Positions 22,651-39,757 of a stretch of 39,757 nt of DNA are shown piece after piece; position 1 is the stretch's first letter; every line of letters starts with the position of its first letter. The position numbers were made by a program, and so were the translations under genes. This DNA is from a virus. Below the pieces are notes generated by a model. It ran no database searches. It saw nothing but the letters and a program-made list of their open reading frames with translations, and was not told where the DNA came from. The DNA is taken from the IMG/VR virus record IMGVR_UViG_3300022933_000001, positions 1 to 39,757 of that record; one strand, written 5' to 3'.

Positions 22651-22669
22651 TACTAGCTATTATTTTTGG

Positions 22670-22689
22670 GGGGTATCTTTTGATGCCCC
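22670..22689 (+). terminator. hairpin immediately downstream of the major capsid gene (terminator or mRNA-stabilising element)
   Basis: GGGGUAUC-UUUU-GAUGCCCC forms 8 bp including one G-U pair, which is valid only on the + transcript. It is not followed by a U tract. The position matches that of T7 T-phi. Confidence 0.35.
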
Positions 22690-22707
22690 TCATTCCTACA
22701 CTAAACT

Positions 22708-23079
22708 ATGACTTTACTAAAGACAGTAATGAAAAGAGACCACGAAGGTGTTCTACGTAAGAGAGCTGAGTATTGGCGCATACCTTCAGGCATTGAGGTA
22801 GGCGAGTCCACACAGACGTATGACACAATAGACGCTAAAGCTGTATTCTTCTTCTCTAACGCTGCGTTAGAAGTGCGTATACCTTCCGTCAATCCTGACG
22901 GCTCTACTAGCGAGGTATCTCACTTGAGCGCAGAAGTGACCTCCTCAAAAGGAGTCATGGTAGACTCTAAAGCTAACACAGTAGGACATATCACAGGCAA
23001 TGCAATGCCCCCATTCTTCCGCTTAAAAGTATCAGGCGCAACTACTAATTCACTAGGTGCTGTATACATAACTTTCTAA
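22708..23079 (+). CDS. hypothetical virion-module protein (123 aa) between the capsid and gp11-like genes
   Basis: ATG ORF on the late strand with beta-rich composition. No T7 counterpart at this position. Confidence 0.55.
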   Translation: MTLLKTVMKRDHEGVLRKRAEYWRIPSGIEVGESTQTYDTIDAKAVFFFSNAALEVRIPSVNPDGSTSEVSHLSAEVTSSKGVMVDSKANTVGHITGNAMPPFFRLKVSGATTNSLGAVYITF

Positions 23080-23080
23080 C

Positions 23081-23695
23081 ATGGCTGACCCTTCAACAAC
23101 TACCGAAATACAGGCAGTAAACACTATCCTCTCCGCTATTGGAGAGCTTCCTACCACAGCAACTGTACTCGCTAACGGAACATCAGCTGATGTTGTTATG
23201 GCGAAGCAGATACTAGATGAAGTTAATCGTGAGGTACAAGCAGAGGGATGGCACTTCAATACAGACTATAAGGTAACCTTCACTCCTGACGGAAGCACTA
23301 AGCATATTGTCCTTACAGATGGAAACATCGTAAGAGTTACAGTAGCGGGGAGAGACCTAACTATCCGATACGACTCAGGAACTACTGAGCGTAGGCTCTA
23401 TGATAAAGAGGAGAACACCTATGAGTTTGAATCTCCACTAACTGAAGAGGCTGTAGTAGTCTACCTCTTTGAGTTCTTCGGTATACCTGAAGCGGCTAAA
23501 CGATACATTACTATACGCTCTGCACGTCTATTCCAAGACCGCATGGTTGGCTCTGCTAATCATCACAAGTTCACAGAGCGCGACGAGTTCAAAGCTCTAT
23601 TAGACCTTAAGGAATACGAAGGGTCTACAGCTGCACCAAACATCTTCCAAAGTCTAGGCACATACAACATCATTAAGCGAGGCTCTGTACTTTAA
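23081..23695 (+). CDS. tail tubular protein A (adaptor), T7 gp11-like (204 aa)
   Basis: AVNTILSAIGELP...AKQILDEVNREVQAEGWHFNTDY parallels the gp11 N-terminus. Confidence 0.9.
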   Translation: MADPSTTTEIQAVNTILSAIGELPTTATVLANGTSADVVMAKQILDEVNREVQAEGWHFNTDYKVTFTPDGSTKHIVLTDGNIVRVTVAGRDLTIRYDSGTTERRLYDKEENTYEFESPLTEEAVVVYLFEFFGIPEAAKRYITIRSARLFQDRMVGSANHHKFTERDEFKALLDLKEYEGSTAAPNIFQSLGTYNIIKRGSVL

Positions 23696-26600
23696 TGGGG
23701 ATACTAAACTCCTCCCTCTCTAACCTCTTAGGTGGTGTCTCGCAACAAGCAGAATCCCTAAGGGGTGCATCTAATTGTGAGGAGCAGACTAACGCTTACC
23801 CTTCCCCTGTGAATGGTTTAGTTAAGCGTCCACCTACACAGTTTATGACTGATGCTTTAGGTGCTAACTTCCAAGATGCTAACGCATTAGATACAGCATC
23901 GCACCTAATCAATAGAGATTCATCTGAAAGATACTTACTAACAATATCAGGTAAGACTATTGCAGAGGATGATGCAACTAGCGTAATATCAGTATGGGAC
24001 TTAGAGAACAACGTAGCTAAGACTGTTTACTATGATGAGGATGCTGTTGATTACCTTAACGCTACAGACTCTACTACAGCTTTCTCTTTCGCTACTGCGG
24101 GAGATGTGACTTACATTAACAACAAGGAAGTCACTCCTAAAATGCTACCTGAGTTAAGCACCGCGGCAATAGATAATGCAATAGTCCATGTTAGGCAGGG
24201 AGCATCTGATACTGAGTACAATATCAAACTTGAAGGAATTACAGTAACACATGAAACACCAACGTCGGGGGATAACTCCATAAAGACTTCAGTTATTGCA
24301 ACAGGATTATACAACGGGTTAATATCAGGTAAGACTGCGACACTCCATTCAGATACTGCTATAACACTACCTGCTGACCATCCTAACGATGGAACCTCTA
24401 TGGGGTACAACGGCACTACACAGTACCACGCTTTCAAACTTAATATAAGTACAGGGACTCCACTAACTAACTTACCAACTGTAAAAGTAACAGGTAGCGT
24501 AGTTAGGTTTGTGAGTGAGGGAACTTATCCAATGTATTATAAAAAAGTACCACACGGGGTTTTTTACCCCATAGCTACGGGAGCTAATTATAGAATACGA
24601 AAGACGGATTCGGAGACAGCTCCCTCATGGATAGAGTTAGAAACTATGAGTGGTGAACCTATGCTACGCGGTTGGAACGGTAATAACCCTGCCCCTGCAG
24701 GTACTGCATCTATAGTGATTGAGGACACCCAAGGCTCTACTAATTTTTCAGCCTACACATTTACTAAACATGACTCTACAATACTAATACACGATACTAT
24801 AGGCGTTGAAGATTTCAATATAGAAACATCCGACTCAGTAGGGGATACATACTTAAAAGCCTTTAAGGGAAGTACGCAATACTTTTCAGACCTTCCTGAA
24901 TCCTGTATTGATGGAATGCGTATGAAAGTAACAGGAAGTGTTGAATCAGCTATAGATGATTACTATGTAGAGTTTAGTACAAGTGGTTCAAATACTTACG
25001 GGAAAGGTTCTTGGATAGAAAAGGCTTCTACAAGTACTCGACATAAAATAGACACAAGTACGATGCCTCATATTCTTATAAGACAATCTGATGGTACGTT
25101 CCTATTCAAGCCTGCTGATGGTTTAACTACTCCTGATGATGTAACTAGCGGCTTTGCCTTACCTGTAGAAGAAACACTTAGCTGTTCAGGAGTCGGTGCT
25201 TATGATACTAATGATACAACGTATACTGTAGATGGTCTAGTAGCTGATACGGTAATTAAAGCAGGCTCAAGGTTGTTAGTACCTGCGGGAGGTTCAGATG
25301 AAGTTATTCTAGGTGACGCAACTGTAGCTCTTGATGGGTCTGTAAGTCTCACAACAGCAGCTACTTTAGGTAATTTTTCTGATGATGAAGCAATGCAGGT
25401 AAAGCTAGTAGGTGACTACTCTTCATTTGAATGGGAAGAACGTAAGGCGGGAGATGATGTGACAAACCCTTTACCTAACTTCATAGGTAACCCAATTAAC
25501 GACATCTTCTTTTATGAAAACCGCTTAGGTATGTTGTCAGGAGAGTCCGTCACGCTATCAGAGTCAGGACAGTTCTTTAACTTTTTTAGAACTACTATCA
25601 TTGATTTATTAGATACTGCCCCTATAGAAGTGGTAGGTTCGTCTAACTCTGTAAACACTCTTCGTCATGCACTGCCGTTTAACAGTAACCTACTACTGTT
25701 TGGTGATAATACACAATTCATGTTAGGCTCAGGTCAAGAAGGACTTTCTCCGAAAACTGTAGCTATGAGCCAAGTCTCTAACTACGAGTGTGACCCTAAC
25801 TGCGCCCCTGCGATTGGAGGCACGTCTGTATTCTTTGCATACCCACGAGGTAGCTACGGCGGTCTACAAGACATGGTTATCCGTGACCCTGAAGCTAGAG
25901 ACCTGCAAGCCTTTGACCTAACAGACTCAGTACCTTCGTACATCGAGAACCCGTTTAGAGCTATTGCAACAATGCCTCAAGAGAATCTAGTCATAGGATT
26001 ACCTAAGGCTGAAGGTGGGGATATGCAAGACCTATACCTATATAAGTATCTCGACAGAGGCAACGAGCGGATTCAGTCAGCTTGGTTTAAGTTTACCTTA
26101 TCTTCTTTCGGAGCCGCCGCGGATGATACACAACAGATAATAGGTATACATACTGTAGAGAATGTATTATATGTACTATCTAGATTTGTAGATAGCGTCA
26201 CACCCAATAGCTCTCACACATCTATCCATAAGATAGAGTTTACTACTGAGGGGATAACAGACCTATTCAGTCAGCCCCCACTACTTGATAACGTACTCTC
26301 TCGTCTAGGTAATAACTCTGGTCTTATCCAAGATGGCGGAACTTTAGTAGACGGTGATACTGTGTTTACTCTTCCTTACGGTAGTGAAGGTAAATCAGCA
26401 TCTGACTTTCAGATTATTACCAAACATAAAACAGGTGATGATGGAGGAGTAGTAATTCCAATACTTTCAGGAACTTTCCTTGCAGAATCTACAACACTAA
26501 CAGTAGACGGTGATAAAAGAGCAGAACACGTTTGGATAGGCTCTAAGTATGACATGACATACAAGTATGCTTCCCCTATCTTCAAAGGTCCTTCCTCAGG

Positions 26601-26925
26601 AGGCGGAGCATCATTAGTAACTTCAGGTCGCTATCAGATACATTCAGCAGACATTGTCTACCACGACACAAATACATTCAATGTAGCCGTGTCAGTAGAG
26701 GGTCGTAGTGATTATTCTTACACCTTTACCGCAGACACTACTCAGGTAGATGTGACTTCTGAAGGTTCAGTCGGACTAGACTCAGGAGACATGAGGATAC
26801 CTATTCATGCTAAGAATGATACATACGATATGACTATTACTTCTGACTCAGCTTATCCTGTAAAACTGTTATCGACTGAGTTCGAGGCACAGTATAATGC
26901 TCGTAGCAGGAGGATGGGAATATGA
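23695..26925 (+). CDS. tail tubular protein B (nozzle), T7 gp12-like, enlarged (1076 aa)
   Basis: The N-terminal LLGGVSQQAESLR...NGLVKRPP matches the gp12 signature. Synteny supports the call. Confidence 0.9.
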   Translation: MGILNSSLSNLLGGVSQQAESLRGASNCEEQTNAYPSPVNGLVKRPPTQFMTDALGANFQDANALDTASHLINRDSSERYLLTISGKTIAEDDATSVISVWDLENNVAKTVYYDEDAVDYLNATDSTTAFSFATAGDVTYINNKEVTPKMLPELSTAAIDNAIVHVRQGASDTEYNIKLEGITVTHETPTSGDNSIKTSVIATGLYNGLISGKTATLHSDTAITLPADHPNDGTSMGYNGTTQYHAFKLNISTGTPLTNLPTVKVTGSVVRFVSEGTYPMYYKKVPHGVFYPIATGANYRIRKTDSETAPSWIELETMSGEPMLRGWNGNNPAPAGTASIVIEDTQGSTNFSAYTFTKHDSTILIHDTIGVEDFNIETSDSVGDTYLKAFKGSTQYFSDLPESCIDGMRMKVTGSVESAIDDYYVEFSTSGSNTYGKGSWIEKASTSTRHKIDTSTMPHILIRQSDGTFLFKPADGLTTPDDVTSGFALPVEETLSCSGVGAYDTNDTTYTVDGLVADTVIKAGSRLLVPAGGSDEVILGDATVALDGSVSLTTAATLGNFSDDEAMQVKLVGDYSSFEWEERKAGDDVTNPLPNFIGNPINDIFFYENRLGMLSGESVTLSESGQFFNFFRTTIIDLLDTAPIEVVGSSNSVNTLRHALPFNSNLLLFGDNTQFMLGSGQEGLSPKTVAMSQVSNYECDPNCAPAIGGTSVFFAYPRGSYGGLQDMVIRDPEARDLQAFDLTDSVPSYIENPFRAIATMPQENLVIGLPKAEGGDMQDLYLYKYLDRGNERIQSAWFKFTLSSFGAAADDTQQIIGIHTVENVLYVLSRFVDSVTPNSSHTSIHKIEFTTEGITDLFSQPPLLDNVLSRLGNNSGLIQDGGTLVDGDTVFTLPYGSEGKSASDFQIITKHKTGDDGGVVIPILSGTFLAESTTLTVDGDKRAEHVWIGSKYDMTYKYASPIFKGPSSGGGASLVTSGRYQIHSADIVYHDTNTFNVAVSVEGRSDYSYTFTADTTQVDVTSEGSVGLDSGDMRIPIHAKNDTYDMTITSDSAYPVKLLSTEFEAQYNARSRRMGI

Positions 26926-27401
26926 AAGCAATCGTAAGAGAGTCAATACTACAGGACGCTAAGGACATGGCTCCTTACTTGCGTGATGCAGACTATGCAG
27001 AACTACGAGCATCTATAGGTGATACATTAGATACCGCGGAACTCCTAAAGATAAGCATTGAACATTCCGATGACCCAAGAACGGTAGAGCTTGATGGAAA
27101 GCCTATTGCTATCTTCGGTGTCGTGGATTCACACGAAACTACACCAAGAGTAGGATATGTGTGGATGCTTGGAACAAACAAGATTAAAGATATTAGAAGT
27201 CAGTTCCTACGGAAGTGTAAGGAACAGTTAATACAACAGGAAGAGCCTTATGAGGTGCTTACCAACTTCGTAGATGCCCGCAACAAGGTACATATCAAAT
27301 GGTTGCGATGGATGGGCTTTACAATTATAAGAGAGGTAGAAAATTATGGAGCAGAGAAGAGAACTTTTTATGAATTTGCGAGGATTAAGGTAAATGTGTA
27401 A
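26922..27401 (+). CDS. gp13-like internal virion/assembly protein (159 aa)
   Basis: It lies between the gp12- and gp14-like genes. Strong SD (AGGAGG). The call rests on synteny only. Confidence 0.5.
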   Translation: MKAIVRESILQDAKDMAPYLRDADYAELRASIGDTLDTAELLKISIEHSDDPRTVELDGKPIAIFGVVDSHETTPRVGYVWMLGTNKIKDIRSQFLRKCKEQLIQQEEPYEVLTNFVDARNKVHIKWLRWMGFTIIREVENYGAEKRTFYEFARIKVNV

Positions 27402-28209
27402 CCCCGTATGGATGGCTTTCGCAGGCGGCGCACAGGCTGCTGTAGGTAACTTTCAAGCTAATGCAGCACATAAGTGGAAGCAGAAGATGGAGGAAGCAGG
27501 TGAACACAATGCCTTCCTCTCTAATGCTGTCCAACAGAGACAGCTCGGTACTCAGACGCAACAGAAGATGCGCTCAGTCAATGAGGAGATTCGCATGATA
27601 CAGCGTAAGGGTAACCAAGTGGCTGCAGCAGCCGCCGTAAGAGCTACGAAGGGTGGAGTGCAGGCAGACTCTGCCTCAGTACAAGCTCTACAACAACAGT
27701 TCGGTAAGGATGCTATGCAAGCTATCGGGGTGCGTGATGTGGAAGGGCAAGAGACTCTCACCTTCTCACAACAACAAGCTAAGGCTATTGAGCTTCAGAC
27801 TCAAGCCCGCATCGACTCAGTACAAGCAGGACCTGCACCTTCCTTTGGTGGACAGGTGCTGAATGTTATTTCAGGAGTGGCTCAGGGATATATGTCAGGT
27901 AAGGATATGCAAAACCCTATAACTCCTGCGGCTCCTACGGGAGGAGCCTTTGCCCCTATGGGTAGCGCGTCTACATACGGGCTATCAATCGTCCCCGCTA
28001 ATCCAATATCATCAGGACTAGGAGGGACGGCTTTAACAACAGCTAACCCCTACCTAAGCATAGGTAGTATGCCTCATTCAGCTTTGTGGAATATGCCAAT
28101 AACGAAACTACCTGCGCAGGGGAGTATGAACCTGTTTAACCCTTACCCTGTTGGACCCCTCAGTTCGTTTGGTCCTTTTAGTCCTTTCGCTTCCTTCGGT
28201 ACTTACTAA
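27394..28209 (+). CDS. internal virion protein, gp14-like (271 aa)
   Basis: Synteny supports the call. The centre is Gln/Ala-rich helical and the C-terminus is Gly/Pro/Ser-rich. Confidence 0.55.
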   Translation: MCNPVWMAFAGGAQAAVGNFQANAAHKWKQKMEEAGEHNAFLSNAVQQRQLGTQTQQKMRSVNEEIRMIQRKGNQVAAAAAVRATKGGVQADSASVQALQQQFGKDAMQAIGVRDVEGQETLTFSQQQAKAIELQTQARIDSVQAGPAPSFGGQVLNVISGVAQGYMSGKDMQNPITPAAPTGGAFAPMGSASTYGLSIVPANPISSGLGGTALTTANPYLSIGSMPHSALWNMPITKLPAQGSMNLFNPYPVGPLSSFGPFSPFASFGTY

Positions 28210-30554
28210 TGCCACAACGCCAACAAACACAGGGAGACTTCGGACTCCGCCCAACTAAGGTAACTCAAGGCATTACAGATGTCTATCATGCACCTTCGAT
28301 ACCTAAGCCTGATATGTCAGGGTTACAGGCTATTGCTAACCTCAGTAAGACTGCTATGGGTTTAGTCCAAGAGCAACACAGACTAGATGTTAGAGATGCT
28401 AAGTTTGCTCAAGAGGAGGCAGAAGCACACGAGAAAACAGGCAGAGAGTTCGGAGAAGCTCATCCTTTTGCTGAGTTCCCAAGAGGTTCTACAGAAGCAA
28501 TGATACTCGGCGGGCGTAAAGGAAGAGCAGCGGCTATGCAGTCTATGTATAGAAATGCAGTAAAAGAAGGCTTCTCCTCCCACTTACTCACTAACCCCGA
28601 AGAGGCTACTAACCCTGACGCTTTCTTTAACTTTGCAGATAATACCTATAATGAGTGGGCATCTACTCATGCAGAGTCTCTCGGCGAGTTAGGATTACAG
28701 GAGTTTGCTGCAGGTCACATAGAGTGGAGGCATCATCAAGGTGCGATACACGGAAACAAAGCTATCGCTCAGGGAGTTGAAGATTTCATTGGAGTGTCAG
28801 ACACTATAATGCCTCAGACTCTTACGGAACTAGAATCTATAAACTCAGCAATAGATGGATATAGCGATTCTCAGATTATCGCTTTATTTCCTGAATACGA
28901 TAGTGAGGAAGAGTTCAATGTAGAGGAACACCGTCAGTTACTTAGAGAGCAGTATGGCACAGTACCTATGCAGAACTTACAAAACTATCTAGGTGAGGCT
29001 CATAGAATGGGAGATGACGTACTGAGACAAGCTGTTGATAGAATATCTACGGACCTCATAAAGGAGATGACTGATGGTATGAATCCAATAGCCGCACATA
29101 CTATGCTTCTAAATCTCCGCACAGGCTCAGGAGCGTTTATAGACCGCCCTGAAGTTAATGAGAAGTACCGTAACTCTTTACAAAAGTTTGAAGCTAATGT
29201 TAATACTCTAAACGCAGATGTTATAGCTTCTAACGCTTCTTTGAATTTTCTAGATTTAGATTCCGATAAGAACTACACTGACTCGCAGGTAAGCTCAGGA
29301 TTATCAGGAGTCGCATTCAACGCTAAAGTAGAAGATGATATATATAATATGTCACTCATTAACGACGAAGATGGGAACGTGCAGCTTTCCGCGAAGGCGG
29401 TCATCGCGCACCTAGTAGATAACCCTGATTTACCCAAAGCCCCCCGCACATCAGAGACTATAACTACTGCACTTAGTTACTTACTTGATAGAAATATTGA
29501 AGCTAATCCTGAAGTTGTTAGTCTAGGTTTAGAGCTTTATAGGTTTGCTCAGAAGTCTACCCCTCTGCTAAAACGCTTAGGACTAGATGCTCATCAACAG
29601 CTTGTCCTTAATTTTGCAACTATGGAAGCCGCTAAAGAAGATTTTCAAGGCGTATCATCTCTACCGCAATTGATAAGAGATGCTAATCTCTATATTGATT
29701 CAGATATTAGAATAACTGCTGAAGAAATGAGGGAGGCTTTCTCAGAGGCTACGACTAGCGGGTGGTGGGCGCGGCTTCATGGAAGTTCCCGTAGACCTAT
29801 AGCCTTCCAATCCGTAGAGGGAATAGAACCCGAACAGATTAGTGGTGATTTTTTACAACGCGCAGAGGCAGTTTATTTGAATCTAGCACAGCAGAGAGGA
29901 AATTCACAATTAAATAAAGAGCAGTTGATGGATAAAACTATTGAACAGTTAGAGACTTTCGGAGTAGTTAATGTGGATGGAAGACCTTTTCAACTCCCTG
30001 AAGGGCGTGGGATGCAGGATGTAGCGGAGATAGAAAAAATAGCAAAACAGAAGTTACTTTCAGAAATACAGGAAGATGCGCTGACGATGCGAGAGATTCA
30101 GGCGGAAATAGGAGAAATGACCCCTGCTGAGTTTAATAGTAAGTACCCTGAAGCTCCTCCTATATTAGAGGGGAGTATGTTCGGTTTAATGAGAAGTGCG
30201 CTTAGACCTGATATATGGTTTAAGGCACGCGCTGAAGAAATCTTCTTCCTTAGAAATAATAGAAGCCCTCTTAATATTACATTTGATGATTATAGTGATT
30301 CTTCTTCATGGGAAGATTTACCTATCAGCCTATATTCCGATTTTGAATTTAAGGAAAACCCTGACTATCTTTTCATAAACGAGGATACAGGAACAGTATT
30401 GGATGGTGTTTCTAGTGATATATTTAATACAAGAGAATTTTCAGCTATGTTTGAGATTGCTCAAGTTATCTTAACCGCAGAGGAAGCAAGGCGGATGGAT
30501 GCGTTTATAGAACATAAAGATAGTACATACTTCAAGTCTACTCCTTTTAATTAG
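28209..30554 (+). CDS. internal core/ejection protein, gp15-like (781 aa)
   Basis: Synteny and size support the call (T7 gp15 is 747 aa). Confidence 0.65.
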   Translation: MPQRQQTQGDFGLRPTKVTQGITDVYHAPSIPKPDMSGLQAIANLSKTAMGLVQEQHRLDVRDAKFAQEEAEAHEKTGREFGEAHPFAEFPRGSTEAMILGGRKGRAAAMQSMYRNAVKEGFSSHLLTNPEEATNPDAFFNFADNTYNEWASTHAESLGELGLQEFAAGHIEWRHHQGAIHGNKAIAQGVEDFIGVSDTIMPQTLTELESINSAIDGYSDSQIIALFPEYDSEEEFNVEEHRQLLREQYGTVPMQNLQNYLGEAHRMGDDVLRQAVDRISTDLIKEMTDGMNPIAAHTMLLNLRTGSGAFIDRPEVNEKYRNSLQKFEANVNTLNADVIASNASLNFLDLDSDKNYTDSQVSSGLSGVAFNAKVEDDIYNMSLINDEDGNVQLSAKAVIAHLVDNPDLPKAPRTSETITTALSYLLDRNIEANPEVVSLGLELYRFAQKSTPLLKRLGLDAHQQLVLNFATMEAAKEDFQGVSSLPQLIRDANLYIDSDIRITAEEMREAFSEATTSGWWARLHGSSRRPIAFQSVEGIEPEQISGDFLQRAEAVYLNLAQQRGNSQLNKEQLMDKTIEQLETFGVVNVDGRPFQLPEGRGMQDVAEIEKIAKQKLLSEIQEDALTMREIQAEIGEMTPAEFNSKYPEAPPILEGSMFGLMRSALRPDIWFKARAEEIFFLRNNRSPLNITFDDYSDSSSWEDLPISLYSDFEFKENPDYLFINEDTGTVLDGVSSDIFNTREFSAMFEIAQVILTAEEARRMDAFIEHKDSTYFKSTPFN

Positions 30555-30556
30555 AA

Positions 30557-33500
30557 ATGGCTGACAAATTAAATTTACAAGACCTACAAGACCCACAAGA
30601 CCCACAAGACCCTAAAAAGAAAAAGAGGGTGGGTGCTGTGGATAGGGTGTTTCCTATTGAAGAGCCTATAAAGACACACGCTCAGGTACAGCACGAAGAA
30701 GCACAAGTCAAAATACAAGACAGGACAGGATTCGTAGGAACCCTACAGGAGGGGGTAGAGTTTATGGCGATGAAACTCCCTACTACTTTGACGGGATTAG
30801 GGATTATGAAAATAGCATCCCCTAGTTTTACCCCTGACAATTCTTATCGAATGAGTGAAGATTTCATGCGCTCAATATCGCTAACAGTACCAAGAGAACA
30901 CCAACAATATATACTAGCTTCTGAATCAGAGGAGGAAGCTAAGTGGCGTTATACTGACGTTCAAGGACGGCTTAAAAACGAGGCGCATTTGGCTGAGTAT
31001 GGGTTTGGTGGAAATGTAGTGGGGCTACTCACAGACCTCCTTGACCCTTCCATGTTAGCTACTTTTGGGGTTGGAGTTAAAGTGGCAAATGTTGCAATGG
31101 GAGCTAAGACTTTGACTGCCGCAGAGATGGCACAGGCGCGGGGGATTTTTAATAGTAAGCTACGGGCTGCAGGGATAACGGAAGCTCAACTCAGAGCTGA
31201 TTTAGAAGCAGTAATTAAAGCAACAGGTAGCGGTGCTAAAACAGTACAGCTATCCGATGAATATTATAAAGTTATAGCAGAGGCTAGAGCAGCAGGCATG
31301 AGATATCTCTCACGCCCCACCTTGACTGAAAGCGTTGTTAGGACTGCGGCAGGTTTTGGAGCAGTAGAGACAGCTAGGGCAAGCTTAAATCCTTTAATAG
31401 ATGAGGAAGATGTTTTATATGCAATTGCTGCGGGAGCTGTAGCGGGCGGAGGTTTATTTCACCCCCTCGGACGCGCTTGGAGGGCAATAAAACAAGGTCC
31501 TTTACCTCCTCCTGAATATATAGGAGGGGTAGGCAAAGGTCCTTGGAGACCTAGACTAGGCGGAGGTTATGATGGACCTGCGGGACCTAAAGGCGGAGGC
31601 GGAAGCCCTAGCATCATACCCCCATCTCCTGACGGTAAGATGCCTACTCCTGAGATGTTCGGGTTACCTGCACCTCACCCTAAAATGCGTATCCCTACGC
31701 ACGTCCCCCTTGAAGGACCTAGTGGACCTAGTGGACCTAGCGGGAGACTGCCACAACTAAACGCGCCGCAACCTGCCTCTACTCATGCCTTTGTTATACC
31801 TCCAAAAGGAGGAGGAGAGTCTGTCATTGTGCCTATTGGAGAGACAGACCCACGACCTATGTTCAAGTCATGGCATGTACTAAACTCACTACATCCTGAT
31901 ACTAAAATTGATGGGGTACTGAAGGCTCTTGAGAAAGCACAGGTATCTAAGTCAGAGATTGCTTACGTTATGAAATCGGGGCAGACGAAGGAGCAGTTAG
32001 AGGCTTTAGCGTTTTTAGATAATTGGGAGAGTTTCTCGACGGGTTATGAGACCAACGCGCTTGATATGAACGAATGGGTTGAGAGAGGTTTTACGGAAAC
32101 CATCCGTGGAGACCGCAATTTCTCTCATAAGCAATTCGCAGAACTTTATAGCGACTATATAGGAGATGATTATTATATAAAGGCGTGGGATATAGGGGTG
32201 TTGCAGAGGAAAGCTCTTAATTTACTTGACGAGAATACCAATATAGCTATAGTGAAGGCTAAAGTCATTGTGGAGGAGAAGTATGACGCCCTCCGTGAAG
32301 CTCATATAGCAGAAACTATATCTATATTAAATGACGCAAAGGCAGGGTTAGATGCGGAATATCACGACGCTTTCCCATTACTAGAAAGATTAGTTGAGTA
32401 TTCTAAGACAAGAGTATCCTATGAAGATTCGGCACTCCGCCTTTTTGAGAAATTAAGTCATGTTCAAAGTTATGACTCATTCCTTGAGGACGTAGATATA
32501 ATTGCGCATCGCTTTTCACCCCTGCTACTCATGAGAAACTCTGACTTTCTCATGATGTTCAAGGCGGTGCAGGAGTTAGGTCATATCCATAATACTATAC
32601 TTGATAGGCTTGCTAATGTATCTGATGGAAATACTTACAGCGTTACCCATACTGAACACTCGCTTGGATACCTCCGTGGACTAGAAATATTCGATATGAC
32701 GGAGTTAGCAGAGAAACACGGAAATCTTTTGCAGATAGACGCAGCTGCTGCAAGGATGTTTTATAAGGCTAAACTACTAAATGAGGTAGGTCCTGCACCT
32801 GAGGCTCCCCTAGAGAAACTTAGAAAAGTTATAGGAGGCACAAGAGAACTAACAGCTCAGAAGCTAGTGAAGAACTATGCGCTTCCTATGATTACTACTG
32901 AGTCTTTTTTAAGTCATATAAAACCCCCCATTACAGAAGAAGTAAAGAACTTGAAGGATAGTTTATTGTTCTTGAAGAGGGAAAGAAATAGACTACTAGA
33001 TTCGATAAAGGAGGAAGAACTAGAGATAAAACTTGCGGAGGAAAAGATACGATACGGGGAGAGCCAACGCGCAAACCCTGATGAAGATACTACCGAAGTC
33101 CTCATGGAAGCATTTGGCACATCCGCCCAAGAAGCATTAGATATTGCAGAGCAGAGATTATCGGTACAGCAAGATAATTTAGCCCATGTAGCGCTAGAAA
33201 TAGAAGATACCATAGCCATGATAAGTAGTGCGTCGATGGTGGGCTTCGGCAATATCCCATACAAAGGTGCAAAGACTTCTGACGTAGTTCCGTATAGTGA
33301 TTCTAAATATAAAAGCCTACCTGTGAATGTTACTGTCATTAGTTCTCCTTCTATTGTTAATTGGAGGAGGCTGCACGATAGTATATTAGGAGCGGGCGGT
33401 TTGGGTTGGGTGCGATGGAGTGCTACCGATGGGGTAGGTATAAAAACCGAAGTATTTGAGAATCAAAACGACCAAACGAAAGGAGAACATACTAAAAAGG

Positions 33501-36500
33501 CAGAAATGGACCCTGAAAGAAAGATGTTAGTTGCTTCACTAGCGTATCAAAGTGCCTATGCAAACATCATAGAGATGGTAAGGTTTGGGGGGCGTGAGAT
33601 AAAGTTTGCAAGTGCTGCGGAAATTCGTGCAAAATCATCAGGCTCTAACCCATCGGATTGGCTTTACGAGGATAAACTTCCCACATTCTACAGAAGATTA
33701 GCTGAGGCTTATGGCTTGAAGTATACTGAGACAGAGGTAATAAGAAACCCGTCTGATACTTATGCTACTTTTAATAAAATTAGAACAGAATTTAGTAGAA
33801 AAGGATTAAAGGAAGAGGCAGAGAAGTACCTCGATTTAATCAGAAGGCAGCAGTACGAACAAGCAGGCGATTGGGCTTATACTAAAATGGGCGGGGAAGC
33901 GTCTGAGTATATGGTGGGTGATTTAACTAAAGAGGCTGCGACTATCGGTAAGAACTATCAGTCTTTCTTAAAGACTAATAAGTACCCACAACGTATCCTC
34001 CGCTTTACGGAGTCAGAAGCTAAGAGGTTCTTAGATAACGCACCTAGATTCCTTAATCCGTTCGCCGCCCCGAAGAGTGTTGTTCAGAAACCTGCGAAGG
34101 CTCTAACCCCTGATGAGCTTACTATCCGTGAACTTGAACGCCTGCTTCCTGCGGAGGCTTTGGATGCTATTGGGTTCAATGTGAAGTTCCCTCGTGAGAT
34201 TATGGAGCAGGCGATGTTCCAAACAGTCGGTGCGGATTATATCGTACCGTTGAGAGATGACATGGGGATGGCGGAACTTAAAGAGATTGTCGCACGAGAG
34301 AATCTTGGAGTTACTCACAGGTCTATGAAGGGTTTAAGGAAAAGGATAACTCTTGCACGAGTTCAGAGACAGGCGGCTGTAACTCAACCTGACCTACGTC
34401 CTGTTATAGTGCCTCAAAGCGTTGCTGATAACTTCCCTGAGATTACTGAAGAAACAGGATTCGTTATCGTTCCTGACGGTGGAATCATGGCTCCAACAGG
34501 CGGAGGAGAAAAGCCACCTACTGTACCACCTACAGCCGACGGCACTACACCGCCTCCTTCTGACCCTGAACCAACACCCGAACCTCTACCTTTTGAGGAT
34601 GTATTAAAACTCATGTATGAGGTAATACCTGCGGCGGGTATGGAGAATATGAGAGGAGGTGCTAAATTTGCTTACAGTCTTTCATATCTTTTAGGTAGAA
34701 GTGACGGACCTGCATCTCTAAGATTCTTACACCACTTCGCTCTTCAGACTCTAATCTCCCCTGTAGATTTACAGGGTGAGAATGTTCCTGTAGGAATAGC
34801 CGCTGATATGAAGGCGGATTCGTTTACTAGAGCTGACTTATCGAAAGTCGGAGAGGAAGTTCAAGGTCTATTTGATTCTTGGTACACAGAAAATAAACAC
34901 CGTTTCCCTTTTATAGGAGGGGAGAAGGCTGTAAGACTACGCAATGCTCAAGAAGACTTCTACCGTCAGGTGTTTGAAGGACTACACGGTAAACCTATTA
35001 CTGACCTCCGTGTACAGTTATCCGTAGATGCTTTCAATAAAGCTAACGCACGGAACGCAAAGAAGATACATGAGAGTGGACTTTCAGAAACTTTATTGGA
35101 ATCTGAAGGATACGCACCGCACTCATGGCTTGTAAAGCAGGTAGGTAATAACATTAGATTGTATGGTCTTGACGTAATGACTTCATTATTTCGTGATGGT
35201 CTTCTAAAACTTAACCCTCACTTTACTGAGAGACAGGCTACACTAATAGCTAAATCATTACTAATAAACGTAAACACACGGGGTTTAGATGTAGATTATG
35301 AAAGCACTAGCGGTGTAGGCGAGGATAGCTTCGCTGCTTTAGAGCGTAAACTCTCCGCTGTGCCTGATATAACCGCAGAAGAAATAGCTGAGATACTAAG
35401 CGTAACTAAAAAGGTTCCAAATAAACCTTCTTTCTTACGCAACCGAACAGAGTTAGACATCTTTACTTCACAGGCTATGCGGAATAAAGAGACAGGCGAG
35501 ATGGACACAGTATCTATTATAGATATGTTGAATACCAACGCCGCTTCTCTGTTGGTCCACCACCAACGCCAACTTAACGGTCAGCTTATGTACCGTGAGA
35601 TGATGACAGAGTTGGCTAAGTTCTTAGGGAAGCCCGAAGCTACTTGGGAAGACTTGAAGGAGTTGGCTAAGTTTGAGATGTTACAACGTGGAGAGAATAA
35701 CGCGGAGACTATGGAGTTAATCGAACACGTCCAACGGATTGTTCTCGGTATACCCATCGACCCCGCACAAGGTAAGTGGGGAGAGTATGCTCGGATACTA
35801 CAGAAGTTCTCTCTCGCCGCCTTTGGTGCTACCTTCGGTATTGCCGCATTAGCTGAAGGAGGACAAGCGGTAGCTATGTCTTCTTTGGAATCAATGCAAC
35901 GGATGTTCCCTGAAATGCAAGCCATTATGATGGATGTCTTAGCAGGTAACATGACTAAGAGCGAACTAGCTAGAGAGCTACAGAACTACGCAGGAATAGC
36001 CCATCCTAAATTCGGTAGAGGGACTAACATGAACCGTGAGTTTGACCACATTGCTGAGGACGTGCAAGGCATGGTCGAGTCTCTTCTAGATTTCTTAGGT
36101 GAGAAGGCATTATCTTTCGGTGGTCTACTCGCTTTAGATACAATGCAAAGGCTGTGGTCAGCTATCTTATTTACTGACAATCTAGTAAACGGTGTACTTG
36201 CAGGTGGGATGCCATACTCTAGGATACACTTGGCGCAGATAGGACTAACTCCTGACATGGCGTATAGAGTTGTAGCTATGATTAACAAGCATGGTAAACT
36301 TTATGATGCCGCCAATGGTGGTAAGAAGATAGGACGATGCCACCCTGAGAATTGGGAAGATATAGAAGCGGCGGAAGCCTTCCGTTGGGCTTTGAACTTA
36401 CACTCTCGAAGGACCATCCACGAGGCGATGAAGGGTCAGTACCACCACAAGTTCCAAGGTCAGATAGGTAGATTGTTTTGGCAGTTCCGTACCTTTATGC

Positions 36501-37024
36501 TATCAGCCTATGAAGGTCAAGCGGTCACCGCAGTACAAGGAATGCAACACGGGGATAAGAGAGCCGCATTTGGTTTACTTACCAACTCTATGTTTGCAGG
36601 TCTTTCCTATATAGCAGGAGTTTTAGTGCGCTACGGACACGATGAAGAGAAGGTGAAGAAGTATCTAACTATGGAGCAGATAGCAAAAGGTATGTTAGTT
36701 AAGTCAGGTTGGTTTACAATAGGTATGCCTATCCTTGATTCAGTACAGAGATTCAGAGGTGAAAGCCCTCTGTTCTCCTACGCCCACACTAATACAGGAC
36801 TTGCATCTAGTGCGCTGATGGGTTCACCTTCAGTAGCTATCGCTGACGCTTTGGCGGGTGTTGTTAAGAGTGTAGTAGCTCCTGTAACCAACCCCAACTA
36901 TAAATATAGTAAACAAGATTGGAGAAATATAGAAACGCTCGCTCCTCTTCACGGGCTAATAGGATGGGGAAACTCTTTGAAAATGATAGGCGATAGACTA
37001 CCCGAAAAATCTAAAGGAAACTAA
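30557..37024 (+). CDS. giant internal core/ejection protein, gp16-like (2155 aa)
   Basis: It is the last internal-protein gene before the fibre. The ORF is uninterrupted for 6468 nt. No SLT catalytic motif is visible at the N-terminus. Confidence 0.7.
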   Translation: MADKLNLQDLQDPQDPQDPKKKKRVGAVDRVFPIEEPIKTHAQVQHEEAQVKIQDRTGFVGTLQEGVEFMAMKLPTTLTGLGIMKIASPSFTPDNSYRMSEDFMRSISLTVPREHQQYILASESEEEAKWRYTDVQGRLKNEAHLAEYGFGGNVVGLLTDLLDPSMLATFGVGVKVANVAMGAKTLTAAEMAQARGIFNSKLRAAGITEAQLRADLEAVIKATGSGAKTVQLSDEYYKVIAEARAAGMRYLSRPTLTESVVRTAAGFGAVETARASLNPLIDEEDVLYAIAAGAVAGGGLFHPLGRAWRAIKQGPLPPPEYIGGVGKGPWRPRLGGGYDGPAGPKGGGGSPSIIPPSPDGKMPTPEMFGLPAPHPKMRIPTHVPLEGPSGPSGPSGRLPQLNAPQPASTHAFVIPPKGGGESVIVPIGETDPRPMFKSWHVLNSLHPDTKIDGVLKALEKAQVSKSEIAYVMKSGQTKEQLEALAFLDNWESFSTGYETNALDMNEWVERGFTETIRGDRNFSHKQFAELYSDYIGDDYYIKAWDIGVLQRKALNLLDENTNIAIVKAKVIVEEKYDALREAHIAETISILNDAKAGLDAEYHDAFPLLERLVEYSKTRVSYEDSALRLFEKLSHVQSYDSFLEDVDIIAHRFSPLLLMRNSDFLMMFKAVQELGHIHNTILDRLANVSDGNTYSVTHTEHSLGYLRGLEIFDMTELAEKHGNLLQIDAAAARMFYKAKLLNEVGPAPEAPLEKLRKVIGGTRELTAQKLVKNYALPMITTESFLSHIKPPITEEVKNLKDSLLFLKRERNRLLDSIKEEELEIKLAEEKIRYGESQRANPDEDTTEVLMEAFGTSAQEALDIAEQRLSVQQDNLAHVALEIEDTIAMISSASMVGFGNIPYKGAKTSDVVPYSDSKYKSLPVNVTVISSPSIVNWRRLHDSILGAGGLGWVRWSATDGVGIKTEVFENQNDQTKGEHTKKAEMDPERKMLVASLAYQSAYANIIEMVRFGGREIKFASAAEIRAKSSGSNPSDWLYEDKLPTFYRRLAEAYGLKYTETEVIRNPSDTYATFNKIRTEFSRKGLKEEAEKYLDLIRRQQYEQAGDWAYTKMGGEASEYMVGDLTKEAATIGKNYQSFLKTNKYPQRILRFTESEAKRFLDNAPRFLNPFAAPKSVVQKPAKALTPDELTIRELERLLPAEALDAIGFNVKFPREIMEQAMFQTVGADYIVPLRDDMGMAELKEIVARENLGVTHRSMKGLRKRITLARVQRQAAVTQPDLRPVIVPQSVADNFPEITEETGFVIVPDGGIMAPTGGGEKPPTVPPTADGTTPPPSDPEPTPEPLPFEDVLKLMYEVIPAAGMENMRGGAKFAYSLSYLLGRSDGPASLRFLHHFALQTLISPVDLQGENVPVGIAADMKADSFTRADLSKVGEEVQGLFDSWYTENKHRFPFIGGEKAVRLRNAQEDFYRQVFEGLHGKPITDLRVQLSVDAFNKANARNAKKIHESGLSETLLESEGYAPHSWLVKQVGNNIRLYGLDVMTSLFRDGLLKLNPHFTERQATLIAKSLLINVNTRGLDVDYESTSGVGEDSFAALERKLSAVPDITAEEIAEILSVTKKVPNKPSFLRNRTELDIFTSQAMRNKETGEMDTVSIIDMLNTNAASLLVHHQRQLNGQLMYREMMTELAKFLGKPEATWEDLKELAKFEMLQRGENNAETMELIEHVQRIVLGIPIDPAQGKWGEYARILQKFSLAAFGATFGIAALAEGGQAVAMSSLESMQRMFPEMQAIMMDVLAGNMTKSELARELQNYAGIAHPKFGRGTNMNREFDHIAEDVQGMVESLLDFLGEKALSFGGLLALDTMQRLWSAILFTDNLVNGVLAGGMPYSRIHLAQIGLTPDMAYRVVAMINKHGKLYDAANGGKKIGRCHPENWEDIEAAEAFRWALNLHSRRTIHEAMKGQYHHKFQGQIGRLFWQFRTFMLSAYEGQAVTAVQGMQHGDKRAAFGLLTNSMFAGLSYIAGVLVRYGHDEEKVKKYLTMEQIAKGMLVKSGWFTIGMPILDSVQRFRGESPLFSYAHTNTGLASSALMGSPSVAIADALAGVVKSVVAPVTNPNYKYSKQDWRNIETLAPLHGLIGWGNSLKMIGDRLPEKSKGN
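30575..30610 (+). repeat. 9-bp tandem repeat x4 at the 5' end of the gp16-like gene
   Basis: TTACAAGAC CTACAAGAC CCACAAGAC CCACAAGAC, encoding LQD LQD PQD PQD. Confidence 0.9.
31715..31741 (+). repeat. 9-bp tandem repeat x3 (GPS GPS GPS) in the first Pro/Gly-rich linker of the gp16-like gene
   Basis: GGACCTAGT GGACCTAGT GGACCTAGC. Confidence 0.9.
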
Positions 37025-37245
37025 TGACTACCCACGACCAAGACTTACTCGTAGCTATCGGCAGACTCGAAGGCAAGATGGATGCTTTGATAGCTATCAC
37101 CAACGCTCACAATGAGATGATTCAGAAACATGATGAACGTCTTCGTGAGTTAGAGACTTCACGCTCTGCCCTGATAGGTGCAGTAGCTATCCTTTCCACA
37201 GCAATTAGTGCCGCCGTAGCGTGGCTCTCAGCAAACTCAGTATAA
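37024..37245 (+). CDS. small coiled-coil protein with C-terminal transmembrane segment (73 aa)
   Basis: Start and stop overlap the flanking genes (TAATG at both ends). The C-terminus is LIGAVAILSTAISAAVAWL. Confidence 0.55.
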   Translation: MTTHDQDLLVAIGRLEGKMDALIAITNAHNEMIQKHDERLRELETSRSALIGAVAILSTAISAAVAWLSANSV

Positions 37246-39757
37246 TGCCATACGATAGACATGATAATGAAAAGATAGACCGTAAGGTTATGGACTGTAG
37301 AGCCAAACTTGGAGGTACTAATATTGTTGTAGGTGGGAACACTGATGCTATAGCTATAAACAAAACTAAGCTAGACCTAATGACGGTAACACAGGCTGTG
37401 AACCTTGATGACATGGAGTCTGACATAGGAGCGGTTAGCGGTTTAACAACCGATGAAAAAGATAATCTAGTAGGGGCTGTAAATGAGCTAGACACTAACA
37501 CTAATGACTGTCAAGCAGATGCTACTAACGCCTCGACTTTTGCAACTACTGCCCTCCTTGCTATAGGAACTACGAGTAATCTCCCAAACCCCCCTGCATC
37601 GCTAGTCGAGGAGATAAATACCCTAGACGTAGCAGTAGATTCAAACACAACTAAATTAGATGGTATTGAAGCAAGTGCAACTGCTGACCAAACAGACGCT
37701 GAAATTAGAACTGCAGTAGAAGCTGCAACTGATTCAAACGTGTTCACTGATGCTGACCATACTAAACTAAATGCTATTGAAGCAGGTGCTGATGTGACAG
37801 ACTCAACAAATGTTGTAGCTGCTTTAACAGCAGGAGAGAATGTAACTATATCTGCAGGTGGAACTATAGCTTCCACAGATACAGACACAACTTATTCATC
37901 TAGTGATTTTACACATGATGACTTAATAGGTTTTGTAGCTGATGAACATATAGATTGGACAGGTGCTTCAGCAGGAACTATCCACTCTTCTAACTATACT
38001 GATACAGATACAACTTATACAAGTTCAAATTTTACACATGATGACTTAACAGGTTTTGTAGCTGATAAACATATTGATTGGACATTAACTAACATTAAGA
38101 ATATCCACTCTTCTAACTATACTGATACAGTTTATGACTCAACTGATATTGATGCAGCAGTAGATTTAAACACAGCAAAGGTAACCTATCCTTCTGCTGA
38201 CTCTACTAAGGTGGGGTATATCAGCGTTACGGAAGCTATAAACTTAGATACCTTACGCGATGACGTAGATAGTAATGATGCAGATATTGCAACTAATGTT
38301 ACGAATATCAGCAGTAACGCTGCAGACATTCTCACGCTACAAGGTAACGTAAATAGCAACGATGCAGATATTGCAAATAATGTTACGAATATCAGCAATA
38401 ACGATGCAGACATAGCCGCCTTACAGTCTGCTGTAACTAGCAACGATGCAGATATTGCAAATAATGTTACGAATATCAGCAATAACGATGCAGACATAGC
38501 CGCCTTACAGTCTGCTGTAACTAGCAACGATACAGATATTGCAACTAATGTTACAAACATAACTACCAACTCCGATGCCATCGGAACACTTTCATCATTA
38601 GCCACGAGTGCTAAAACCAACTTAGTGGGGGCGGTTAATGAGCTACATACAGAATTAGGTAGCGAGACAACAACGTCCTTAGTTTTATCTGGTAACATCC
38701 TCACGTTTACTAATCAGGATGGTGTAACGAACACTATATCCTTAGCCCACTACTTAGATGACACAGACACAAATACCTTTGTGTCGTCAGGGTCGGTAAA
38801 TAGCGCAGGGCTAGTCACTTTCATTATGAGCGACGCTTCGACATTTACAGTAAACTTAGAGTCTTTATTAGACACTACAGTTACTGTAGTTGATAACTTG
38901 ATAAGTACGAGTACCGTAGATGCTTTGAGTGCTGGTAGGGGCAAGGTATTAAAGGATGGTCTTGATACTCTCACCACCACTAAAGTAGCTACATCGTCTA
39001 ACCAAGCGTTAGTTTCCGCAACTGATGCTATGACTATTAGTGACCATACTATTACTTTAAATAGAGCAGATGGAACTACGGACACAGTTACAGTTCCTGA
39101 TAATGACACCACTTATACGGTAGGCGATGGTGGGCTAACTGAAATTAACTTTACGTCAGCGGATAATACTAAACTAGACGGTATAGCAGCAGGTGCTACA
39201 GTAGACCAAAGTGCTGCAGAAATAAAAACTCTTTTAGAGGATGGGATTAATAGTGTTCATTATGTAGATGGAAGTATAGATACTATTCACATAGGTGATG
39301 ACCAAGTAACAGTAGACAAACTGGCGAACTCAATCAATACAACTATAGCCGCCAATACAGCTAAAGACACTAACGTCACAACCGATTTAAGCGTAAGCAG
39401 AGATGGAACCAAGTTGGTTGTAGTTTCGAGTGATGGAGCAAACGCAACACTACCCCTAGTTGATACAAATAATTGGGGTGTGATGTCGGATGAAATGTTC
39501 GACGAGCATACAACCAATAATGCTAAGACAGGCATTTCGCCTGTACAGGCAGCAGCTATTACAAATAATACTACTGCTATAAGTGGTAACGATACAGACA
39601 TAGGAACACTCGCTAGTTTAACGACTACAACAAAGTCAAACCTTGTAGCGGCTATAAACGAATTAGATAGCGACATGGAGACAGTCGAGAATACGGTGGA
39701 CTCCCATACGGCAGCAATCCCTGCTAACTTATCTACAAGATTGTCTGCGCTAGAAGC
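37245..39757 (+). CDS. tail fibre protein, N-terminal 837 codons (ORF continues through the circular junction to 434; ~939 aa in total)
   Basis: My manual translation from ATG 37245 shows no stop up to the window end. The motifs NLVGAVNEL and TKLDGIEAGA recur, and internal tandem repeats are present. The ORF is absent from the track because it has no stop inside the window. Confidence 0.85.
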   Translation, partial: MPYDRHDNEKIDRKVMDCRAKLGGTNIVVGGNTDAIAINKTKLDLMTVTQAVNLDDMESDIGAVSGLTTDEKDNLVGAVNELDTNTNDCQADATNASTFATTALLAIGTTSNLPNPPASLVEEINTLDVAVDSNTTKLDGIEASATADQTDAEIRTAVEAATDSNVFTDADHTKLNAIEAGADVTDSTNVVAALTAGENVTISAGGTIASTDTDTTYSSSDFTHDDLIGFVADEHIDWTGASAGTIHSSNYTDTDTTYTSSNFTHDDLTGFVADKHIDWTLTNIKNIHSSNYTDTVYDSTDIDAAVDLNTAKVTYPSADSTKVGYISVTEAINLDTLRDDVDSNDADIATNVTNISSNAADILTLQGNVNSNDADIANNVTNISNNDADIAALQSAVTSNDADIANNVTNISNNDADIAALQSAVTSNDTDIATNVTNITTNSDAIGTLSSLATSAKTNLVGAVNELHTELGSETTTSLVLSGNILTFTNQDGVTNTISLAHYLDDTDTNTFVSSGSVNSAGLVTFIMSDASTFTVNLESLLDTTVTVVDNLISTSTVDALSAGRGKVLKDGLDTLTTTKVATSSNQALVSATDAMTISDHTITLNRADGTTDTVTVPDNDTTYTVGDGGLTEINFTSADNTKLDGIAAGATVDQSAAEIKTLLEDGINSVHYVDGSIDTIHIGDDQVTVDKLANSINTTIAANTAKDTNVTTDLSVSRDGTKLVVVSSDGANATLPLVDTNNWGVMSDEMFDEHTTNNAKTGISPVQAAAITNNTTAISGNDTDIGTLASLTTTTKSNLVAAINELDSDMETVENTVDSHTAAIPANLSTRLSALE
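37875..38120 (+). repeat. 123-bp (41-codon) tandem duplication inside the fibre gene
   Basis: TDTDTTYSSSDFTHDDLIGFVADEHIDWT...IHSSNY is followed by TDTDTTYTSSNFTHDDLTGFVADKHIDWT...IHSSNY. Confidence 0.85.
38271..38522 (+). repeat. 84-bp (28-codon) tandem repeat x3 inside the fibre gene; units 2 and 3 are identical
   Basis: Units lie at 38271-38354 (diverged), 38355-38438 and 38439-38522 (identical). A further degenerate unit follows. They encode SNDADIANNVTNISNNDADIAALQSAVT. Confidence 0.9.
39631..39757. repeat. contig-end overlap, copy 2 (identical to 1-127)
   Basis: Direct base-by-base comparison of both ends. Confidence 0.97.

Follow-up and report, generated by a model that had tools for sequence, protein, structure and literature searches.

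A 2155-residue gp16-type ejection protein of a marine podovirus is split by a giant orphan insert

The DNA analyzed here (the window) is the whole of IMG/VR virus record IMGVR_UViG_3300022933_000001, 39,757 nucleotides (nt) in length, and the gene under study, located on its plus strand, is one uninterrupted open reading frame (ORF) of 2155 amino acids (aa) with an ATG start. Since positions 1–127 of the window are repeated exactly at positions 39631–39757, forming a 127-nt terminal direct repeat, the assembly is circular and complete, with a genome of 39,630 bp. The phage is an Autographiviridae-like podovirus. Its plus strand carries, in this order, the genes for the portal, the scaffold, the major capsid protein, tubular proteins A and B, a gp13-like protein, gp14 and a protein in the gp15 position, followed by the 2155-aa gene, a 73-aa ORF and the tail fiber; the minus strand encodes a T7-type RNA polymerase (RNAP), SSB, RusA, primase/helicase, DNA polymerase, exonuclease and terminase. 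The 2155-aa gene is found where a gp16 gene would be expected, after the gp13-gp14-gp15 position and before a fiber gene with a Phage_fiber_rpt match. This uncultured phage is known from seawater metagenomes only, in which its sequence occurs in at least 16 studies dating from 2017 to 2025, and the closest cultured relatives of the phage, which are pelagiphages and Mesorhizobium phage Lo5R7ANS, show an RNAP identity of only ~32%.

A preliminary description of the window had proposed that the gene encodes a gp16-like ejection protein, about 840 residues longer than T7 gp16 (1318 aa), in which three modules of roughly 320, 880 and 830 residues are joined by two Pro/Gly-rich linkers. The reading frame, a match to the gp16 family PHROG 342 and the gene order bear out the first of these statements, and the surplus amounts to 837 aa. 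When the whole protein was scanned in 30-aa windows, just two regions with a Pro+Gly fraction of at least 0.35 were found, namely aa ~290–422 (nt 31424–31822, with a fraction of 0.36–0.43 against a protein mean of 0.13) and aa 1292–1353 (nt 34430–34615). The strings quoted for the linkers had been placed correctly, with PPPEYIGG at nt 31505 and GPSGPSGPSG at 31715–31744 in linker 1, and APTGGGEKPP at 34490 and EPTPEPLP ending at 34591 in linker 2; at the DNA level, the triple GPS is a 9-nt unit repeated 2.9 times (31715–31740). The protein begins with MADKLNLQDLQDPQDPQDPKKKKR, the N-terminal repeat preceding KKKKR that had been noticed earlier, which is encoded by four tandem copies of a 9-nt unit (30577–30612) and whose character is retained in a sister-clade homologue, P0001 (QDPQNPEPE...KESKR). 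The modules measure 314, 897 and 809 aa. While this tripartite layout stands, the N and C modules turn out to be the two halves of an ordinary gp16 rather than independent modules.

Full-length homologues of the same architecture, with lengths of 2097, 2099 and 2293 aa, are present on independent ENA, JGI, IMG/VR and Tara contigs, so we take the frame to be real and not an assembly artifact. A 39-kb contig of the source run agrees with the gene at every position, and the end of the central part and linker 2 (34261–34580) are also covered by a contig from a seawater metatranscriptome. An apparent joint between positions 31834 and 35483 on a contig of another run (X9) rests on just 23 letters and was taken as spurious. 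No conserved Shine–Dalgarno/ATG combination that could serve as an internal translation start for the C module was found downstream of linker 2. The coordinates of the features are collected in Table 1.

Table 1. Features of the 2155-aa gene and of selected neighboring genes in the window.
Feature	Residues	Position (nt)	Strand	Description
Whole gene	1–2155	30557–37024	+	gp16-type internal virion (ejection) protein; ORF, PHROG 342 (E 2.9e-68), synteny
N-terminal tail	1–44	30557–30688	+	Acidic/Pro QDP repeats, then KKKKR; 9-nt x 4 repeat
N module	45–314	30689–31498	+	Homologue of the "TMH I" region, no lytic transglycosylase; hydrophobic Gly/Ala-rich segment aa 286–304
Linker 1	315–414	31499–31798	+	25% Pro, 19% Gly; GPS x 3 repeat at 31715–31740
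Insert, first half	415–893	31799–33235	+	Acidic (net -27), long predicted helices; unalignable between clades beyond the first ~60 aa
Insert, second half	894–1311	33236–34489	+	31% identical to sister clade; ends with conserved DLRPV..DNFPEI..ETGFVIV
HeH/Rho_N-like motif (candidate)	1236–1268	34262–34360	+	Lead only
Linker 2	1312–1346	34490–34594	+	37% Pro
51-nt block		34513–34563	+	In linker 2; encodes PPTVPPTADGTTPPPS; DNA-level identity to sister clade
C module	1347–2155	34595–37021	+	gp16-C + TMH II; hydrophobic segments aa 1747–1765, 2005–2024, 2085–2111
gp13-like		26922–27401	+	Upstream partner; gp13-like/gp14 pair matches PHROG 308 and 805
gp14		27394–28209	+	Pfam T7_gp14, E 4.6e-10
gp15-position protein	781 aa	28209–30554	+	Assigned by gene position
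T7-type RNAP		7578–9974	-	Separate gene

The assignment of the two outer modules rests on PHROG 342, annotated as "internal virion protein with endolysin domain" and comprising 1235 profile positions. In the C module, aa 1369–2150 match profile positions 465–1228 with an E value of 2.9e-68, and the N module, when searched alone, matches positions 208–357 with aa 45–193 (E 1.2e-14); no match was obtained between the two. To read these positions in terms of gp16 domains, we calibrated the profile with pieces of T7 gp16, for which the domain names and a topology model have been given (PMC8954989). T7 residues 1–241 (transglycosylase and "molecular tape") correspond to profile positions 4–236, residues 243–410 ("TMH I") to 240–405, and residues 459–1315 (the gp16-C hub and "TMH II") to 431–1227. 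These calibrated matches identify the TMH I region in the N module, and gp16-C plus TMH II in the C module, gp16-C being a DNA-binding cytoplasmic hub in T7 (PMC8954989).

Other comparisons agree. Using hhalign with a four-sequence family alignment as the query and the gp16 proteins of T7, RHEph21, Lo5R7ANS and BOESR1 as targets, aa 1519–2150 could be aligned to T7 residues 665–1313 with a probability of 99.5%, and a weak collinear match placed aa 110–164 on T7 residues 280–339. The motifs S.SE...N..LAE.G.G......DP and, following it, NP...DVL.A..AG.V.GG were recognized by eye in canonical gp16s as well as in the pelagiphage protein. A search of the PDB with a profile of the C module retrieved two solved ejection proteins, 8vb2_A (PhiM1 gp48; E 3.3e-11) and 9vvp_L (E 9e-8). 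Hydropathy analysis revealed hydrophobic segments at the places equivalent to TMH I (aa 286–304) and TMH II (aa 2005–2024 and 2085–2111). Other searches returned little: with megablast, none of 50,697 phage records matched the gene, tblastn matched only aa ~1520–2155, a phmmer search of the PDB with the whole protein gave nothing, and the same was true of word-indexed protein searches with the whole protein, the C module and a 199-aa domain of a Tara variant described below, the index having no reach to such sequences.

The earlier remark that no SLT motif is visible holds, as Pfam yielded no SLT or lysozyme match on the whole protein or on any of its modules, and profile positions 1–207, the endolysin part of PHROG 342, are left unmatched. 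The N-terminal peptidoglycan hydrolase, which in T7 is a lytic transglycosylase (residues 1–156) and which is found in T7-like members, not in all gp16 homologues, is not present in this protein. Elsewhere in the genome, a free-standing 147-aa ORF of the destabilase family (i-type lysozyme) at 10287–10730 on the minus strand is the sole peptidoglycan-hydrolase candidate that we found. With 2155 aa, the protein lies outside the range of 609–1337 aa given for gp16 homologues in a 2022 review (PMC8954989); the homologues retrieved here measure 825 (a split form), 1241, 1258, 1318 and 1532 aa.

Judged from the profile alignment, the interval between profile positions ~405 and 465, which consists of linker 1, aa 415–1311 and linker 2, is extra sequence: some 1,050 aa placed at the hinge between TMH I and gp16-C. 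This hinge is a hot spot that is split or expanded in other gp16 genes. In pelagiphage Bylgja EXVC010P, gp16 is broken at the hinge into two genes, gp11 (a "pesticin domain protein" of 619 aa, profile positions 176–400) and gp12 (an "internal virion protein" of 825 aa, positions 475–1222). The 1532-aa homologue of Ralstonia phage BOESR1 contains ~300 additional residues between positions 416 and 446. That all modules might be ordinary gp16 parts, the outcome that the preliminary description had set against its own proposal, is what we observe for the N and C modules; it does not apply to the central part. We are highly confident that the protein has kept both halves of gp16, has lost the hydrolase and has gained a lineage-specific insert at the hinge.

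Comparison with individual relatives sharpens this picture. With T7 gp16 (internal virion protein D), the protein has in common its gene position, the TMH I region, gp16-C with TMH II and the hydrophobic segments; it differs by the missing lytic transglycosylase and the ~1,050 extra residues at the hinge, and direct sequence identity between the two is detectable only over aa 1961–2039. The best relative of the C module with a solved structure is gp48 of Pectobacterium phage PhiM1, a "tetrameric ejection protein" (PDB 8VB2; PMC11440229), in which chain residues 648–964 align to C-module positions 126–428. This protein has 1263 aa and no counterpart of the insert, however, and its match to the C module is only partial. 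Among cultured phages, the C module is most closely related to the split pelagiphage proteins (24% identity, E 1e-30), whose N modules also contain the NP..DVL.A..AG.V.GG motif and whose break coincides with the insertion hinge of the window protein; in contrast to the latter, they are encoded by two genes, retain a lysozyme-type N-terminal domain and lack an insert. In BOESR1, finally, the insert is located at the same hinge, but it is unrelated, a third of the size, and combined with a retained N-terminal lysozyme or peptidase part. The BOESR1 insert (L015:5480–6400, aa ~386–688) contains the string HEIAH (HExxH), has no Pfam match, and may be of a zincin-type peptidase.

The insert itself is an orphan. 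The preliminary description could assign no feature to the central module and suggested a novel injected effector or an extended trans-envelope channel element, both of which are still candidates; the family, PDB and motif searches assigned no feature to it either. An exhaustive phmmer search with aa 415–1311 against 1.84 billion cluster representatives returned one relative, P0001 (E 6e-35), which is a 2099-aa full-length homologue from a sister clade of marine phages. The two proteins are 41% identical overall; identity is 60–88% in the C module and 30–50% in the N module, and within the insert it drops from 30–40% in the second half to ~15% in the first. Between aa 315 and 1368, no Pfam, NCBIfam or PHROG domain and no conserved catalytic motif were detected. 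The possibility that the insert originated as a copy, since diverged, of gp15, gp16-C, the N module, a canonical gp16 or pelagiphage gp11 was rejected, as hhalign probabilities were at most 0.4% in all cases, and the same threshold applies to internal repeats, of which none were found. A relationship to the BOESR1 hinge insert was likewise ruled out at the sequence level.

AlphaFold2 was applied to the complete insert (897 aa) and to its better-conserved half (418 aa), using a two-row alignment in each case. The low-confidence models are nearly all helix, with some helices of 40–60 residues and one short beta region. The best-modeled stretch, aa 1236–1268, is a candidate helix-extended-helix (HeH) motif; it is modeled as a helix-loop-helix with predicted local distance difference test (pLDDT) values of 64–75, and the stretch of P0001 aligned to it matches Pfam Rho_N (PF07498) with an E value of 5e-4 and 20.4 bits, compared to a cut-off of 24.9 bits.

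Comparison of the window with the clade of P0001, represented by contigs L003 and L007, shows how unevenly this phage has diverged. The replication genes are close, with amino acid identities of 96% for primase/helicase, 96% for RusA, 88% for DNA polymerase and 76–78% for RNAP, and gp13 is 92% identical. Sharp divergence is seen in one contiguous block. There, the gp15-position protein resembles its sister-clade counterpart (1078 aa) over the first ~350 aa only, at 35% identity, and the fiber shaft differs. For gp16, identity amounts to 32% in the N module, 31% in the second half of the insert and 63% in the C module, while the insert's first half is unmatched past 60 aa. DNA similarity picks up again at position 34427, immediately ahead of linker 2.

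Within the P0001 clade, the ratio of nonsynonymous to synonymous substitution rates (dN/dS) is 0.33 in the N module, 0.16–0.19 in both linkers (0.18 in linker 2) and 0.21–0.25 in the C module, as opposed to 0.5–0.9 in the insert, parts of which reach 0.84–0.93 between L003 and L007. Between the same two contigs, a piece of ~100 aa in the insert has been replaced wholly, the rest of the gene being 97–100% identical. A Tara variant of 2293 aa (L010) carries a separate 199-aa domain inside linker 1 (L010:1540–2139), which displays a DGRHR motif in a strand-helix setting of the ParB/Srx-like kind. Its only NCBIfam match, weak and restricted to the motif (E 0.14), is to SbnI, which we take to be a member of the ParB/Srx superfamily; no Pfam or PHROG match and no homologues of this domain were found. 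In runs X10 and X13, a 10.8-kb contig is ~95% identical to the window from position 33940 onward and dissimilar upstream of it, and contains a 177-nt (59-aa) in-frame insertion at 34361/34362, just after the HeH-like stretch. Taken together, the dN/dS values, the cassette swap and the additions in variants indicate a modular and mosaic insert under weaker constraint than the sequence on either side, held on conserved tethers.

A contig of run X5 breaks at position 34377. As in X10 and X13, insert sequence upstream of the breakpoint is unrelated to that of the window; these variants from other seawater samples are further alleles of the central insert.

Linker 2 contains a 51-nt block that is identical at all 51 positions to L003 and L007 and at 50 of 51 to L010, flanked by sequence that is ~67% identical downstream and unalignable upstream. 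No other exact run in the gene is longer than 22 nt. At conserved residues, the four-fold degenerate third positions are identical in 15 of 15 cases within the block, versus 25–50% elsewhere, and linker 1 also shows a raised value (18 of 26). When the block was sought with a degenerate protein-level search, the two known IMG/VR contigs were the sole places where it turned up, and bacterial genomes yielded none. RNA structure in the block is unsupported (z = -0.44), its -1 frame stops at a conserved TGA, and its antisense strand has a 41-aa ORF with AAGGAGG and GTG, of a kind to be expected opposite Pro-rich coding sequence. The location of the block at a mosaic boundary suggests a recombination junction or a signal at the nucleotide level; a recombination junction, an internal signal and a frameshift site are the candidates. 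A promoter-like repeat, GCACTACNCC, has three sites where 0.16 are expected; it was not accepted, because the pattern had been picked post hoc and one of the sites lies inside the DNA polymerase gene.

Several features of the surrounding genome are of interest in their own right. The divergent layout, in which positions 1130–17789 are occupied by minus-strand genes and 17632–37024 by plus-strand genes, is unusual for a T7-like phage; the RNAP gene, the replication genes and both terminase subunits lie on the minus strand and the structural genes on the plus strand, as they do in the sister-clade contigs. For the 781-aa gp15-position protein, no PHROG, Pfam or NCBIfam family match was found. 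Tubular protein B (gp12-like, 23695–26925) has 1076 aa and spans a 793-position PHROG profile from end to end, so it must hold ~280 inserted residues. The tail-fiber gene (~939 aa, Pfam Phage_fiber_rpt) extends from 37245 to 39757 and on to 434, and since it crosses the ends of the window, it is absent from the list of ORFs; the minus-strand ORFs listed at 37205–39676 are probably spurious antisense frames. Within the fiber gene, repeats recur at periods of 84 and 123 nt (37875–38560). Its counterpart in the sister clade has only 164 aa, the common part being the C-terminal ~115 aa. A region of ~1.7 kb (14054–15769), free of ORFs over 65 aa, contains three 26-nt direct repeats (15160–15270) and a 27-nt inverted repeat (15154–15180/15287–15313) and may be an origin or an early-promoter region.

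The identity of the protein is settled at the level of sequence: it is a gp16 of the ordinary kind that has lost its hydrolase and is interrupted, at a hinge known to be variable, by a giant orphan insert. To rationalize the presence of the insert, we consider what the T7 model would imply. Like T7 gp16, the protein would be packaged in the capsid core, and upon infection its chain would be threaded unfolded through the tail and refold in the host envelope; TMH I and TMH II would then lie in the inner membrane, and gp16-C would be cytoplasmic. In the T7 model, the hinge is the point at which the chain enters the cytoplasm, and the insert would therefore be delivered to the cytoplasmic side. 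Held by two conserved flexible tethers, it would end up at the cytoplasmic face, beside the entering DNA. There, it would most likely act as a cargo that interacts with the host or with nucleic acids, for example in early take-over or counter-defense, rather than as a part of the conduit.

We favor this cargo reading because of the beads-on-tethers layout, the domains present in variants, the raised dN/dS values together with the cassette swaps, and precedents among ejectosome and polyvalent proteins; the candidate HeH/Rho_N-like motif near the end of the insert would be in line with it. Gp15 of phage ICP3, an ejectosome protein, inhibits CapV of the cyclic-oligonucleotide-based antiphage signaling system (CBASS) and is a precedent for a role in counter-defense. 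Giant ejected proteins of the polyvalent type, such as P1 DarB/DdrB and the N4 virion RNA polymerase gp50, are mosaic virion-borne proteins that enter the cell along with the DNA and carry additional modules (Iyer et al. 2017, PMC5512222). Their likeness to the window protein is a matter of functional speculation and not of membership, as their MPTase, ART, helicase, methylase, DdrB-ParB, LPD and RNAP domains were not detected in it. Polyvalent proteins are defined by at least two recognizable effector or LPD domains, none of which was detected in the window protein, and the single-subunit RNA polymerase domain at the center of N4 gp50 likewise has no equivalent among its Pfam or PHROG matches.

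A number of observations weigh against the cargo reading. For the insert, nothing was found in Pfam, PHROG, NCBIfam, PDB sequence and profile searches or in a motif scan. The AlphaFold2 models have mean pLDDT values of 35.9 (complete insert) and 37.7 (418-aa half), a low confidence that makes them unusable, and the Foldseek comparison suggested in the preliminary description, carried out against BFVD and the PDB, yielded no match with E ≤ 0.001; TM-scores did not exceed 0.13, and we disregarded the hits as meaningless. Rho_N is not matched by aa 1236–1268 of the window protein itself, and the match of the sister stretch is below threshold. A dN/dS near 0.9 is equally compatible with near-neutral drift. 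The insert diverges alongside the gp15-position gene and the fiber, a pattern that fits adaptation to the envelope as well as an arms race. Moreover, the membrane topology of T7 on which the term "cytoplasmic side" depends is a model and has not been determined experimentally (PMC8954989). All things considered, we assign a probability of roughly 40% to the joint reading of a gp16-type architecture with the insert as a cytoplasmic cargo module.

The most serious alternative, which we nevertheless consider somewhat unlikely, is that the insert, being helical, adds length or bracing to the trans-envelope conduit or to the cytoplasmic hub, for instance as a spacer matched to the host envelope, and has no effector role. 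A near all-helical prediction with helices of 40–60 residues would suit such a structural extension, being reminiscent of the gp15/gp16 tube proteins, as would the lack of a catalytic motif and the co-divergence of the insert with the gp15-position protein and the fiber, which are other envelope-facing parts; with the transglycosylase and most of gp16-N lost, the ejectosome must be built differently anyway. However, internal repeats are absent from the insert, and no resemblance of it to gp15, gp16-C, the N module or canonical gp16s could be detected. From a load-bearing tube, one would expect stronger constraint than dN/dS values of 0.5–0.9 indicate, and less tolerance of cassette swaps and of additions of 59 to 199 aa; flexible Pro/Gly tethers on either side are more in keeping with an appended module than with a rigid conduit.

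It is less probable still that the insert is a nearly neutral foreign or de novo segment with little function of its own, lodged in a permissive hinge and kept in frame only for the sake of the essential C module downstream. The dN/dS values of 0.84–0.93 between L003 and L007 would be natural for such a segment, as would a first half that cannot be aligned between clades, the absence of homologues elsewhere and a hinge that tolerates a gene split and other inserts. Drift alone does not readily account for the preservation of length (~830–900 aa) between clades that are only 41% identical overall, nor for the conserved blocks of the insert, which include DPR..FKSW.VL where it starts, RW..FE.QN..RK..II.MV in its core and DLRPV..DNFPEI..ETGFVIV where it ends, nor for the strong purifying selection on the linkers. 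In addition, ~3 kb, or 7.5% of a 39.6-kb genome, packaged in several copies per virion, would be costly junk.

A role inside the capsid prior to ejection, in which the insert would enlarge the core stack or organize the packaged DNA, appears improbable. Placement of T7 gp16 as the top ring of the core stack (PMC8954989) and a possible nucleic-acid-binding HeH motif would be in keeping with it, but the core proteins of related phages manage without an insert, and rapid mosaic evolution is unexpected for a purely internal packing element. Fusion of two or three genes by mis-assembly or sequencing error at the linkers can be dismissed: although repeat-bearing low-complexity linkers are error-prone spots in assembly, uninterrupted frames of 2097–2293 aa recur on independent contigs from the four sources named above, the source-run contig matches the window across the gene, and the metatranscriptome contig spans the end of the insert and linker 2.

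These results bear on the gp16-type proteins generally, which form the last and least understood part of the DNA-injection channel of podoviruses. As the protein shows, ~1,000 extra residues, and ~1,250 in one variant, can be accommodated at the hinge where the membrane-inserting region meets the cytoplasmic hub. It is also a natural test case for the length of chain that a T7-type tail can pass. Given the insert described here and the split and inserts in other lineages, the hinge is a candidate for a general entry point for the delivery of protein modules. Being large, widespread in marine samples and without relatives or a predicted fold, the insert is a clean target for structural and functional work. 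In its boldest form, the cargo reading would make the hinge a cargo slot through which this marine clade delivers a hypervariable module of ~900 aa, with a function in counter-defense or take-over, to the cytoplasm ahead of the DNA, with the linkers serving both as tethers and as recombination junctions. We regard this version as a long shot; if it is true, the linker junctions, one of which carries the frozen 51-nt block, would let co-infecting phages swap cargo while leaving the channel-forming halves of the protein undisturbed.

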